From positions 107 to 64,106 of the forward strand of contig JBFWQE010000009.1 of assembly GCA_050249615.1 (NCBI GenBank): a DNA stretch of 64,000 nucleotides, read 5' to 3'. This DNA comes from Vicinamibacterales bacterium (GTDB lineage: Bacteria; Acidobacteriota; Vicinamibacteria; Vicinamibacterales; UBA2999). Below, piece after piece: positions 22,377-26,888 of this stretch. A program made the translations under genes and the position numbers. Every line of letters begins with the position of its first letter. The first letter of the stretch is position 1. The notes under the pieces are model-generated. The model ran no database searches. It was given only the letters and a program-made list of their open reading frames with translations, and was not told where the DNA came from.

Positions 22377-25300
22377 CTACTGCGGGAACCGCCCCGTCGC
22401 CACGAGCAGGTCGAGCCGCGCCTGCCGCACGCGATCCTCCGCCTGGGCCACCGCCGTCTCGAGAGCCCGCGCGGAGCGCTGCGCGTCGATCCCCTCGATG
22501 TTCGTCGTCGCTCCGGCGTCGAACGCCGTGATCGTGATCTTCAGCACCTGGTGGGCGGCCTCGGCGGCCGCCCGCGCGCGGGCCAGCGCGCGCTCGTGAT
22601 ACTCCACGGCCGCGCGGGCCGTCCGCACCTCGGCCCGCGCCTGCAGCGCGAGCTGCTCCAGTGCCAGCTCGCTGTCCCTGAGGTTGGCTTCCCGCTCGCT
22701 GCGGAGCCCACGACGGCGGCCACCGTCGTACACGGGCTGGGTCAGCGAAACGCTGAGCCGCCAGGTTCCCGAAGGTTGGAAGAGGCCGGCCGGCGCCACG
22801 TACGTGGGGTCGAACGACACGTTGGCCGTCGGCCACCAGTCGCGCCGGCTGTCCCGGACGATGCGATCCGAGAGGTCGCGCTGGGCGCTGAACAGGCGGT
22901 AGTCGGTGCGGGAAGCCAGCCACGACTCCGGCGACCCGATGATGGGCACCTCGAACGCCGGCTCGCCCCCCGCGTCGCGCGGCCCGTCGGCGTTGAGCAG
23001 CACGCCCAGTGCTTCCCGGGCGCGCTCCACGTTCAGGCGTGCCACTTCGAGCAGTGCCTCGTCGCTCGAGACGATCTGCCGGGCTCGCAATGCGTTCAGC
23101 CGGCTGCCGATGCCGCCTTCGAGCCGCTTCTGGTTGTAGTCGAACTGCGCGCGCGAGGTCTCGAGAGCGCGCTGCTGCACCTCGACCAGCCGCTTCTGCG
23201 TGATCACCGCCAGGTACGCCGTCGCGGCCGAGACCGCGACCTGCCGCCGCACATCGGCCGTGTCGAGCCGCGCGATCTCGATGCGGTCTGCCTGCTGCGC
23301 GCGTGCGGCCCACGCCGTGGCCGCCAGGACCGGCATGCCGACGGTGGGCGCCAGGGTCCACTGGTTCTGCGGCTGCACGACCAGCCCGTCGAACCCGCGG
23401 TCCCCGTCCAGCGTGGAGTTCACCACCGACACGTTCACGAAGGGCATGGTCGAGGCGCGCACCTGCTGGAGCAGGGCCTCGGCCCTCAGCACGTTGTTGG
23501 CGACGATGCGAACCGCGAGGTTCTGATCCACGGCGGCGGCCACGGCCTGATCGAACGACACCGCGGGCGGGGCCTCTGGGGGCTGTGTGGCGGGCGGAGA
23601 CTGCGGCGCCACCGCCTGGCCCTCACTGGCCGTCACCGCGGAGACGAGCGCATCCGCCGACAGGACACGGCCGGCTTCCCGCGTCTGCGCCACGGCCGGG
23701 GCGGCGAGGACGAGGGCCAGCACGATCACCGCACCCGCTGTGGCCGCGTGACCCGGCCCGCCCTGCGCCTCGGCTTCCTCATCCTGCCCGCGCACCTTGC
23801 CGGGCGCCAGCGTGCGGATGATGACGTACAGCACGGGAATGAAGATGACCGACAGGAACGTCGAGGCCAGCATCCCGCCGGCCACGGTTGTCCCGACCGA
23901 GTTGCGGGCCGCCGCGCCCGCGCCCGTCGCCAGCGCCAGCGGCAGCACGCCCAGGATGAACGCGAACGACGTCATCAGGATGGGCCGCAGGCGGATGCGC
24001 GACGCCTCCACGGCCGCATCGACGATGGAGAGTCCCCGCGCGCGCATCTGCTCCGCGAACTCCACGATCAGGATGGAGTTCTTCGCGGCCAGGCCGATGA
24101 GCAGCACCAGCCCGATCTGGCAGAAGACGTCGTTGGCCAGCCCGCGGAGCAGCTGGGCCGAGAGCGCCCCGATGACGGCCAGCGGCACGCCCAGCAGGAT
24201 GATGAACGGCAGCACCCAGCTCTCGTACTGCGCGGCCAGCACGAGGTAGACCAGGATCACCGAGAGGCCGAAGATGAGATTGGCCTGCGTGCCGGCCTTG
24301 ATCTCCTCGAGCGACTGCCCCGCCCACGCGAAGCTGAAACCGGGCGGCAGTGTCTGCCGGGCCAGCTCCTCCATCGCCTGCAGCGCCTGCCCGGAGCTCT
24401 GTCCCGGGGCCGGGTTGCCGGTGATCTCGGCGGACCGGAACAGGTTGAAATGGCTGATCACCTGCGGCGCCGTGGTCTCCCTCATCCGCACGACGGTGTC
24501 GAGCGGCACCATCTGCCCGCTCGCGGCGCGCGCGTACAGCTGCTTCAGGTCCGCCGGGGTGGCCCGGAAGCGCTGGTCCGCCTGCGCGTACACGCGGTAG
24601 GCGCGGTTGTTGAAGTCGAAGTCGTTCACGTAGGACGACCCCAGGAACACCTGCAGCGCGTCGGTGACCTCGCGGATCGGGAGCCCGAGGCTGCGCGCCC
24701 GGTCGCGATCGATCTCGACCACCAGCTGCGGGTCGTCGGCGCGGAAGCTGCTGAAGAGCCCCTGCACCCGCCCGCTCTGGTTGCCGGCGCCGATCATCCC
24801 GAACGTGGCCTGCGCCAGCCCGCCGATGTCGGCGCTGTTGGTCTGGTCCAGCACCTCGAACTGGAAGCCGCCGAAGGTGGACAGCCCCTGGATGGCCGGC
24901 GGGGGGAAGGCCACCACGATGGCGCCGGGAATCATGAAGAGCGGGCCGCTGATGCGCCCGAGTACCGCGCGCAGCGAGTGCTCCGGCCCCGGCCGCTCCG
25001 AGTAGTCCTTGAGCCGGGTGAAAATCAGCCCGTTGTTCGGCGCCGCCCCCGAGAAGCTGAACCCCATCACGGAGAACGCGGCGGCGATGTCCGGATCGCC
25101 GTAGAGGATCTGCTCGGCCTTCTTGGCGATCTCGGTCGTGTACTCCAGCGACGCGCCCGCGGGCGCCTGCACGACGCAGATGAGGAAGCCCTCGTCCTCT
25201 TCCGGCACGAACGCCGTGGGCACGACCTGCAGGAGCGTGTACGTGGCCCACAGCCCGCCGGCGAACAGGAGGAGCATGGCGTACCGGAAGCGCAGCGCCC

Positions 25301-26888
25301 CGCGCAGCACCCGCACGTAGAGGCGCGTGCCACCGTCGATGACGGCGTTGACGGCATTGAAGAACACGCCGTGGCTGTGGCTCTCCTTGTCCAGCAGCAG
25401 CGCGGACAACGCCGGCGTCAACGTCACCGCGTTGAACACCGACAGCACGACCGCGAACGCGATGGTGAGCGAGAACTGCTGGTAGAGCCGGCCCGTGACG
25501 CCCGGGAAGAGCGCCACCGGGACGAACACCGCCACCAGCACGATGCCGATGACGACAACGGCGCTGAACACCTCGCGCATCGCGTCGATGGCCGCCCGCC
25601 GGGCGCTCTTCTGGTACTCGCTCATGTGGCGCTCGATGTTCTCGATGACCACGATGGCGTCGTCCACGACGATGCCGGTGGCCAGCACGATGCCGAAGAG
25701 CGTCAGCGTGTTGATCGAGAAGTCGAACAGCTTGATGAACGCGAAGGTGCCGACCAGGGACACCGGGATCGTGATGGCCGGAATGATGGTGCTCCGCCAG
25801 TTCTGCAGGAACAGGAACATCACCACGATGACCAGCCCGATCGCTTCGGCCAGCGTCTTCAGCACCTCGATGATCGACTCGCGCACGACGCTGACGTTGT
25901 CGAACGCCAGGCGCCACTCGAGCCCGGGCGGGAAGTCCGGCTCGAGGCGGGCCATGGTGTCCATCACGCCGTCGAACACCTCCAGCGCGTTGGCCGACGG
26001 CAGCAGCGCGATGCCCATGCCCGAGGCCTCGAGGCCCAGGAACCGGAGGTTCGCCGCGTACTGCTCGGCCCCCAGCTCCACCCGGCCCACGTCCTTCACG
26101 CGGACCAGCGCGCCGTCCGGGCCCGCCTGCACCACGACGTTCTCGAACTCCGAGACTTCGGTGAGGCGGCCGACGGCCCGGACGCTCATCGTGAACATCT
26201 GGCCGGGCATGGCCGGCTGATCGCCCAGGGCGCCGGCAGCGACCTGCACGTTCTGCTCGCGCAGCGCGTTCATCACGTCCCCGGCCGTGAGCTGCCGGGC
26301 CGCCAGGCGCGCCGGATCCAGCCACAGCCGCATCGCGTAGCGCCGCTCGCCGAAGATGATGACGTCGCCCACGCCCGGCACGCGCTTGATGGCGTCCCGC
26401 ACGTACAGGTCCAGGTAGTTGCTGATGAACTGGTTGCTGTAGCGGTTGTCCTTGCTGAAGAACCCCAGGCCGCCCATGAAGCCCGCAGTCACCTTGGTGA
26501 CCGTGATGCCGTTGGTGCGCACGTCGGCCGGCATGCGCCCGAGCGCCGAGTTCACCCGGTTCTGCACGTCCACCGCAGCCAGGTCCTGGTTGCGCGAGAT
26601 GTCGAAGGTCACCGTGATCGTCGACATCCCGAAGTTCGTCGAGGACGATGTCATGTAGGTCATCCCCTCGACGCCGTTGATGGCCTGCTCGAGCGGCGTG
26701 GTGACCGCGCTCTCCACCGTCTGCGCGTTCGCGCCGGTGTAGAACGCCGTGACCGCCACGGCCGGCGGGGCCAGCTCGGGGTACCGCGCGATGGGCAGGG
26801 TCGGGATGGCGATCGCCCCCGCGAGGATGATCAGCAGCGAGCAGACCGTCGAGAGGACGGGCCGCTTGATGAAGACGTCGGTGAACAT
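22377..26888 (-). CDS. RND (AcrB/HAE1-type) permease fused in frame to a TolC/OEP-type outer-membrane factor
   Basis: One open frame from ATG 26888 (MFTDVFIKRPVLSTV) to TAG 22377-22379 (LLVATGRFPQ*). The junction at 23641-23830 was hand-translated and has no stop. It reads RTLAPGKVRGQDEEAEAQGGPGHAATAGAVIVLALVLAAPAVAQTREAG. Confidence 0.8.
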   Translation of the reverse strand: MFTDVFIKRPVLSTVCSLLIILAGAIAIPTLPIARYPELAPPAVAVTAFYTGANAQTVESAVTTPLEQAINGVEGMTYMTSSSTNFGMSTITVTFDISRNQDLAAVDVQNRVNSALGRMPADVRTNGITVTKVTAGFMGGLGFFSKDNRYSNQFISNYLDLYVRDAIKRVPGVGDVIIFGERRYAMRLWLDPARLAARQLTAGDVMNALREQNVQVAAGALGDQPAMPGQMFTMSVRAVGRLTEVSEFENVVVQAGPDGALVRVKDVGRVELGAEQYAANLRFLGLEASGMGIALLPSANALEVFDGVMDTMARLEPDFPPGLEWRLAFDNVSVVRESIIEVLKTLAEAIGLVIVVMFLFLQNWRSTIIPAITIPVSLVGTFAFIKLFDFSINTLTLFGIVLATGIVVDDAIVVIENIERHMSEYQKSARRAAIDAMREVFSAVVVIGIVLVAVFVPVALFPGVTGRLYQQFSLTIAFAVVLSVFNAVTLTPALSALLLDKESHSHGVFFNAVNAVIDGGTRLYVRVLRGALRFRYAMLLLFAGGLWATYTLLQVVPTAFVPEEDEGFLICVVQAPAGASLEYTTEIAKKAEQILYGDPDIAAAFSVMGFSFSGAAPNNGLIFTRLKDYSERPGPEHSLRAVLGRISGPLFMIPGAIVVAFPPPAIQGLSTFGGFQFEVLDQTNSADIGGLAQATFGMIGAGNQSGRVQGLFSSFRADDPQLVVEIDRDRARSLGLPIREVTDALQVFLGSSYVNDFDFNNRAYRVYAQADQRFRATPADLKQLYARAASGQMVPLDTVVRMRETTAPQVISHFNLFRSAEITGNPAPGQSSGQALQAMEELARQTLPPGFSFAWAGQSLEEIKAGTQANLIFGLSVILVYLVLAAQYESWVLPFIILLGVPLAVIGALSAQLLRGLANDVFCQIGLVLLIGLAAKNSILIVEFAEQMRARGLSIVDAAVEASRIRLRPILMTSFAFILGVLPLALATGAGAAARNSVGTTVAGGMLASTFLSVIFIPVLYVIIRTLAPGKVRGQDEEAEAQGGPGHAATAGAVIVLALVLAAPAVAQTREAGRVLSADALVSAVTASEGQAVAPQSPPATQPPEAPPAVSFDQAVAAAVDQNLAVRIVANNVLRAEALLQQVRASTMPFVNVSVVNSTLDGDRGFDGLVVQPQNQWTLAPTVGMPVLAATAWAARAQQADRIEIARLDTADVRRQVAVSAATAYLAVITQKRLVEVQQRALETSRAQFDYNQKRLEGGIGSRLNALRARQIVSSDEALLEVARLNVERAREALGVLLNADGPRDAGGEPAFEVPIIGSPESWLASRTDYRLFSAQRDLSDRIVRDSRRDWWPTANVSFDPTYVAPAGLFQPSGTWRLSVSLTQPVYDGGRRRGLRSEREANLRDSELALEQLALQARAEVRTARAAVEYHERALARARAAAEAAHQVLKITITAFDAGATTNIEGIDAQRSARALETAVAQAEDRVRQARLDLLVATGRFPQ

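Follow-up and report, generated by a model that had tools for sequence, protein, structure and literature searches.

To our knowledge, all characterised tripartite efflux systems encode the inner-membrane pump and the outer-membrane duct in separate genes, and how cells match the amounts and partners of the two is still debated. What, then, does a gene that encodes both in one reading frame produce? The question is raised by a 64,000-nucleotide stretch of contig JBFWQE010000009.1 from a Vicinamibacterales bacterium (the window), in which a single minus-strand gene at 22377-26888 joins a permease of the resistance-nodulation-division (RND) family to an outer-membrane factor (OMF). Comparison with relatives, a group of soil Acidobacteria, shows that this fusion is real, conserved and under selection. 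Judging from the sequences, we consider it probable that the product of the fused gene is a polyprotein, from which signal peptidase I would release two of the three proteins that make up a tripartite RND pump.

Translation of 22377-26888 on the minus strand gave 1503 sense codons followed by TAG, with zero internal stops. A previous reading made by a model from the DNA letters and their open reading frames (ORFs), hereafter the sequence-only reading, had described one uninterrupted 1503-codon frame; our translation is the same and contains every peptide string quoted there. The ORF listing extends the frame upstream to a GTG at 27194. Because this extension runs into the gene for the periplasmic adaptor, and because homologues start at MFTDVF or MxADVF, the equivalent of MFTDVFIKRPV in the window protein, we take ATG 26888 as the real start.

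The RND half is, by its profile and motif matches, a complete HAE1-family permease with intact relay motifs. Pfam ACR_tran matches amino acids 3-1025 with 1127 bits over model positions 2-1021 of 1021, and two NCBIfam RND models are passed above their cut-offs (NF000282, 1268.6 bits, cut-off 1250; TIGR00915, 1245.7 bits, cut-off 940). Scores against the NCBIfam equivalog models for AcrB, AcrD and OqxB were all far under cut-off. Three proton-relay motifs, VVDDAIV, AAKNSILIVEF and RLRPILMTS, can be read in the translation; judging by motif, we take GIVVDDAIVVIEN, GLAAKNSILIVEF and RLRPILMTS to correspond to AcrB D407, D408, K940 and R971 in transmembrane helices (TM) 4, 10 and 11.

The C-terminal half carries two tandem OEP repeats that reach amino acid 1499 (Pfam, 125 bits, cut-off 22). 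It scored under the NCBIfam subfamily cut-offs for TolC type I (TIGR01844, 63 bits, cut-off 225) and for NodT lipoproteins (TIGR01845, 45 bits, cut-off 210), and it has no Cys at position +1 and hence no lipobox cysteine, so it is not a NodT-type lipoprotein. It is a divergent outer-membrane factor whose OEP membership holds at the level of Pfam and fold only. An AlphaFold2 (AF2) model of amino acids 1000-1503, built with 39 homologues and with a mean predicted local distance difference test (pLDDT) score of 81.5, shows in order TM12, a disordered tail, an 11-residue helix at a hydrophobic segment, a mostly disordered linker and a high-confidence TolC topology. This last part consists of two repeats, each with two beta-strands, a 68-69-residue helix and split helices, mostly at pLDDT >90 (elements E151-161, E175-189, H191-258, H264-298, E355-366, E375-384, H390-458 and H464-499). 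Foldseek matched it to TolC (1ek9), CusC (3pik), SilC, OprM and OprN (about 400 columns, target-normalised TM-score 0.70-0.78), so that the OMF half, as modelled, is a complete TolC fold. These results bear out two assignments of the sequence-only reading, a complete HAE1/AcrB-like permease in the first ~1030 amino acids and a full OEP/TolC-family domain at the C-terminus.

Table 1. The fused gene, its parts and the other genes of the pump locus (window coordinates; aa, amino acids).
Feature	Coordinates	Strand	Evidence
Single 1503-codon ORF plus stop: RND permease, internal signal peptide (predicted) and OMF	22377..26888	-	Translation, Pfam, homologues
RND (HAE1/AcrB-type) permease, aa 1-1030, end after TM12 (...FIPVLYVIIRTLAPG)	23799..26888	-	Pfam, NCBIfam, motifs
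Cytoplasmic tail, aa 1031-1047, 17 aa (KVRGQDEEAEAQGGPGH)	23748..23798	-	Homologue comparison, AF2
Internal signal-peptide-like segment, aa 1048-1067 (AATAGAVIVLALVLAAPAVA), h-region and c-region	23688..23747	-	Residue counts, unfused sisters, AF2
Linker, aa 1068-1109, 42 aa, Pro-rich, mostly disordered; after the predicted cut it would extend the mature channel at the N-terminus	23562..23687	-	Homologues, AF2
OMF (TolC-fold) domain, aa 1110-1503, VSFDQAVAAAVDQN to LLVATGRFPQ	22380..23561	-	Pfam, AF2, Foldseek
Periplasmic adaptor (membrane fusion protein)	26891..28135	-	Pfam HlyD_D23, HlyD_3, Biotin_lipoyl_2; NCBIfam TIGR01730
Divergent TetR-family regulator	28155..28838	+	Pfam TetR_N, TetR_C_6

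Do relatives encode the two halves as one protein or as two? A search with the whole protein found more than 120 homologue clusters, of which 120 are listed; all counts out of 120 below refer to these listed matches. They are 70-92% identical to the window protein and 1429-1516 amino acids long, and 118 span the full query. All 120 are single chains with both domains (PF00873 and PF02321), which settles for these clusters a point that the sequence-only reading had left to comparison. Their source labels are Vicinamibacterales or Acidobacteria proteins from metagenome-assembled genomes (MAGs), named only 'RND transporter permease subunit', probably because the OMF half is too divergent for the NCBIfam TolC and NodT cut-offs. 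With fused proteins named in this way, genome-based counts of outer-membrane factors in Acidobacteriota will be too low.

We then used a profile of the OMF part to scan GTDB genomes, one for each species, and followed the OMF frame upstream at each of the 79 loci found, all of them from MAGs that are mostly labelled Acidobacteriota or Vicinamibacterales, with a few odd labels. The halves are fused in frame at 34 of the 79 loci and cleanly unfused at 32. Three further loci are of the fused type with frameshifts (nanopore MAGs L035, L040 and L077), five are of the unfused type with frameshifts, and at the remaining five the contig ends too early for classification.

These comparisons bear directly on the concern, raised in the sequence-only reading, that an indel in the contig had merged two separate genes, and on the wider possibility of a sequencing or assembly artefact or a pseudogene. 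The genes of unfused relatives overlap in different frames, so that one indel could join them, and some nanopore-derived MAGs are indeed frameshifted here. Yet the same fusion recurs in more than 120 non-identical clusters, and the 34 species genomes that keep the frame come from different, independent samples and assemblers. Junction length varies among these genomes, always by whole codons. A 92%-identical protein lies on a 344-kb contig and a 96%-identical OMF part in locus L009, and a mean column identity of 75-78% in both halves indicates clear purifying selection. The comparative evidence rules the indel artefact out, leaving it a probability close to nil.

A search of 50%-identity representatives with amino acids 1030-1503 had no full-length fused protein in its top 150 matches; the full-length fused cluster is evidently represented by another sequence, which makes this search uninformative on how widely the fusion has spread. 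Four of its matches (P0171, P0176 and P0210 by Pfam, and P0121 by an N-terminus inside TM12) are contig-truncated fragments of fused proteins. Another, P0190 (647 amino acids), carries TetR_N and TetR_C_11 in one chain with two OEP repeats, separated by a stretch that resembles a signal peptide; it is either a further case of read-through fusion or an artefact of gene calling or of a frameshift. Within the 79-locus set, the RND/OMF locus is frameshifted in the MFD nanopore MAGs L035, L040 and L074-L079 and intact in short-read assemblies of related species. These frameshifts are probably homopolymer errors in GC-rich sequence, and they counsel caution in calling fusions or pseudogenes from such assemblies. 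Several MAGs with this Vicinamibacterales-type locus (L009-L011, L013, L026, L029-L031, L040, L042 and L072) are titled 'uncultured Bifidobacteriaceae', 'Acidimicrobiia' or 'Cyanobacteriota', which are probably placeholder or mis-assigned taxonomy.

A signal-peptide-like segment lies where the two halves are joined. We placed a candidate cleavage site where the uncharged run that surrounds the hydrophobic maximum ends, without using alanine as a criterion. Relative to this site (marked by a slash), position -5 is T, A or S in 108 of 120 homologues, position -4 is P in 95, position -3 is A in 104 and position -1 is A in 114. The Pro-free uncharged hydrophobic run before it has a median of about 14 residues, the length found in signal peptides, and a helix-breaking Pro comes next. 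In the window protein the segment reads AVIVLALVLAA-P-A-V-A/Q (...LAAPAVA/Q). We interpret P-A-x-A/Q as the c-region inherited from the signal peptide of the ancestral OMF; it is also a textbook site for signal peptidase I, with a predicted cut between A1067 and Q1068 (nucleotides 23688 and 23687) that is based on the (-3,-1) rule and on conservation.

The same motif was observed in unfused relatives. Position -3 is A in 21 of 30 unfused OMFs and position -1 is A or G in 29 of 30, and this A-x-A/Q precedes the VTFDEA helix; the fused proteins keep the hydrophobic core (h-region) and the c-region. The proposal of the sequence-only reading that the stretch ending in AVA/Q is the retained signal peptide of the OMF thus gains support. 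The Gln at +1 is almost invariant, in 109 of 120 fused and 28 of 30 unfused proteins, which suggests that the mature channel begins with Gln, possibly as pyroglutamate.

On either side of the segment, tail and linker have drifted beyond alignment among homologues. The tail, counted between the PVLY motif at the end of TM12 and the hydrophobic core, is 23-54 residues long in homologues and variable in sequence, being acidic, Gly-rich and sometimes built of tandem repeats; in the window protein it is disordered in the AF2 model (pLDDT <50). The linker after position +1 spans 6-57 residues with a median of 14.5, and is at most 10 residues long in 49 of 120 homologues and at most 20 in 83. The window protein has a 42-residue linker of low pLDDT with one weak helix in the model.

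Individual loci show further features in this region. The linker of L026 contains about 5 copies of ATAEAVALRTQES (positions ~5700-6000, at the junction upstream of the OMF match), and in L054 the unit DRRGGSLDPPA is repeated in the cytoplasmic tail and PQSRARLDGV in the linker (~3800-4090). In the window, an out-of-frame ATG in the +1 frame (23714-23770, minus strand) gives MRKPRRRAGRVTRPQRVR and then a stop exactly at the start of the hydrophobic core. We considered this peptide as a relic of an old OMF n-region and rejected it: about 21 of 35 fused loci contain such a +1 ATG, but where these frames start and stop varies from locus to locus, and the ATGs are probably due to chance, arising from GAT-G codon pairs.

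Unfused sister loci indicate where the fusion came from. All 32 have the RND gene immediately before the OMF gene, and the OMF start falls 5 nucleotides before the RND stop in 24 of 26 loci examined, with ATG as the start in 23. The resulting overlap is 8 nucleotides in the +1 frame, of the type CATGGCTGA, with a GGAGG-like site within the last RND codons. To judge by this layout, the pair is a classic case of translationally coupled genes and the ancestral state of the fusion. The unfused OMF begins with Met, a positively charged n-region and a hydrophobic core, that is, an ordinary Sec signal peptide, and 5-42 residues (median 8) separate position +1 from the first conserved helix (VTFDEAV...). 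In sister operons such as L043-L045, L070 and L073, RND and OMF are orthologous to the fused halves (OMF 47-57% identical), and gene order, signal-peptide core and A-x-A/Q are alike; they differ in having two genes, the 8-nucleotide overlap and a Shine-Dalgarno (SD) site in the RND tail. This comparison shows that the fusion arose from two overlapping genes coupled in translation.

Neighbour-joining trees of the OMF half and of the RND half, both without bootstrap support, agree in showing one large all-fused clade that includes the window protein. They also agree on a second fused lineage, L050, which falls among unfused relatives in both trees. Since both halves place L050 in this way, the trees suggest that the fusion arose at least twice, independently. 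The L050 fusion is kept in 10 further clusters of 78-100% identity, including contigs >1 Mb.

We propose the following route for the fused product, in which we infer the membrane insertion of the segment, the cleavage itself and the fate of both products. The ribosome would make the 12-TM RND permease, run on through the short cytoplasmic tail and then reach the former OMF signal peptide. This segment would insert N-in/C-out, threading the OMF part of about 440 amino acids into the periplasm, where signal peptidase I would cut behind the conserved A-x-A. The freed OMF would take the ordinary outer-membrane beta-barrel route, trimerise in the outer membrane and dock, via the lipoprotein adaptor encoded upstream, onto the RND trimer, while the leftover hydrophobic segment would stay at the RND C-terminus. 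Overall, pump and channel would be synthesised strictly 1:1 and at a single site on the membrane. An N-in/C-out crossing is what topology calls for, because the RND C-terminus is cytoplasmic and the OMF part must reach the periplasm; the extra pass after TM12 postulated in the sequence-only reading holds on these grounds. Cleavage would also explain why P-A-x-A/Q and a short core were kept in both independent fusions while the flanks drifted.

Several points weigh against this route. The segment is internal and preceded by an acidic, Gly-rich tail, without an initiator Met or a positively charged n-region (a Met lies within 25 residues of the core in only 5 of 120 homologues), and we assume, on the model of the FbcH polyprotein described below, that signal peptidase I would accept it behind 12 TM helices. 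Arguments from linker length are weakest for the window protein itself, whose Pro-rich 42-residue linker is among the longer ones. The L050 lineage, moreover, keeps an in-frame Met before the h-region in 8 of 10 members, and internal initiation could contribute there.

The sequence-only reading had left two options standing, a polyprotein cut by signal peptidase I, which the evidence favours, and a tethered pump-channel, which short linkers speak against. If uncleaved, the segment would be a permanent 13th TM helix and the linker would hold each OMF protomer to an RND protomer across the periplasm. The continuous frame and the coherent topology are compatible with such a tether, the 3:3 stoichiometry of the two trimers fits it, and the fairly long, Pro-rich linker of the window protein could reach up to about 150 Å when fully extended. 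Distances in the assembled pump argue otherwise for the family. According to PMC8277102, the OMF alpha-barrel measures 100 Å, with the first OMF helix in the equatorial belt around its middle, and the periplasmic part of RND is 70 Å tall. From these dimensions the N-terminus of the assembled OMF would lie at least about 120 Å from the inner membrane, a distance that even a straight, fully stretched chain would need at least 35 residues to cover, and most members fall far short of this, with 6-10 residues in the 49 shortest. The linkers of fused proteins also do not exceed in length the N-terminal extensions that mature OMFs have in unfused relatives, and the core is of signal-peptide length and ends in a conserved P-A-x-A/Q that a permanent anchor would not need. 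A tether cannot be the conserved function of the family, and we regard it as very unlikely to be what the fused gene makes.

The OMF could instead be translated separately from an in-frame start in the junction, the read-through fusion being a minor or non-functional by-product. This fits the coupled ancestral pair, in which the OMF start lies just inside the RND tail, and the in-frame Met of the L050 lineage. In the tail or where the core begins, 28 of 34 fused loci have at least one in-frame ATG, GTG or TTG, as is expected by chance in GC-rich DNA. No start-codon position is conserved in the main fused clade, however, and none of the 34 fused loci has a conserved in-frame internal start with an SD motif; the combination of start codon, SD-like motif and positively charged n-region occurs in 0 of 34. 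The scarcity of Met upstream of the core among the listed homologues points the same way. Without a stop codon, moreover, every ribosome that translates RND enters the OMF part, so that the precursor would be made anyway. An internal start as the main route to the OMF is unlikely in the large clade and conceivable in the L050 lineage; as a general account of the fused genes, we give it a very small chance.

Cleavage of the precursor, which we continue to favour, might still leave the remnant with a role. The leftover helix might modulate the pump as a 13th segment, acting much as a small accessory TM protein would, and release of the OMF at the site where its RND partner is inserted might nucleate a dedicated, non-exchangeable pump; or else an uncleaved fraction might bridge the periplasm in long-linker members like that of the window. 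Such elaborations are speculative and on the whole unlikely.

The fused gene is the last of a standard pump operon of adaptor, RND and OMF with a divergent TetR gene (Table 1). RND operons are usually accompanied by a divergently transcribed TetR regulator gene according to PMC8277102, and the TetR-family protein here is likely a local repressor of the pump operon. The adaptor scored 203 bits against NCBIfam TIGR01730 RND_mfp (cut-off 95). Its N-terminus, ...FAFLAVLFTAAC (...LFTAAC), resembles a lipobox, which makes it probably a lipoprotein. Its stop codon ends 2 nucleotides ahead of the ATG of the fused gene, the junction being TAG-cc-ATG. Downstream of the fused gene lies an unrelated gene with a YkuD domain (Pfam). 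Farther on, two genes downstream of the pump operon, an ATG-started ORF of 1388 amino acids (15247-19413, minus strand) has no Pfam match at E <= 0.001. Long ORFs at 12278-14902 and 41636-43705 (both minus strand) likewise lack a Pfam match, and given the GC-rich DNA all three may or may not be genes. By family membership, the pump would have an AcrAB-TolC/MexAB-OprM-type function in drug or amphiphile efflux.

In aggregate, it seems that selection can favour making a cognate pump and duct together in an obligatory 1:1 ratio. If the precursor is cut as proposed, one half would stay in the inner membrane and the other would reach the outer one, which would be rare for a bacterial polyprotein. 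The fusion also offers an experimental system for an outer-membrane protein delivered co-translationally behind a polytopic membrane protein. Our literature searches, together with text searches in the first 300,000 characters of a 2021 Chemical Reviews monograph on tripartite pumps and in a survey of outer-membrane protein fusions, found no natural RND-OMF fusion, in agreement with the sequence-only reading, which knew of no characterised example. Domain-architecture databases may well list the combination.

Among known systems, the closest in kind are AcrAB-TolC of E. coli and MexAB-OprM of P. aeruginosa, which, according to PMC8277102, share with the locus described here a lipoprotein adaptor, a 12-TM RND permease and a TolC-fold OMF, as well as the order adaptor, RND, OMF and a divergent TetR. 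In those systems RND and OMF are encoded separately and often unlinked (tolC), whereas here they occupy one reading frame. OprM, furthermore, is a lipoprotein and the OMF described here is not.

A likeness in design comes from other proteins. The FbcH polyprotein of Bradyrhizobium japonicum, studied by Thony-Meyer and colleagues around 1989-1991, is said to join cytochrome b and c1 in one frame, a polytopic inner-membrane protein followed by a periplasm-facing one, and to be cut at an internal signal into two subunits of one complex. Both products reportedly stay at the inner membrane and their cleavage is said to have been demonstrated, whereas the second product here would reach the outer membrane after a cleavage that we predict. 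In its architecture and conservation, the Vicinamibacterales gene would suit processing of this type. Covalent joining has also been used by design: engineered fusions of AcrAB-TolC components for structural work enforce stoichiometry. Those constructs are artificial, link adaptor to RND and are meant to stay uncleaved, in contrast to the natural fusion described here, which most likely separates. Set beside these systems, the Vicinamibacterales gene represents a natural fusion of pump and duct in an efflux pump of known type, and most likely a self-separating precursor.

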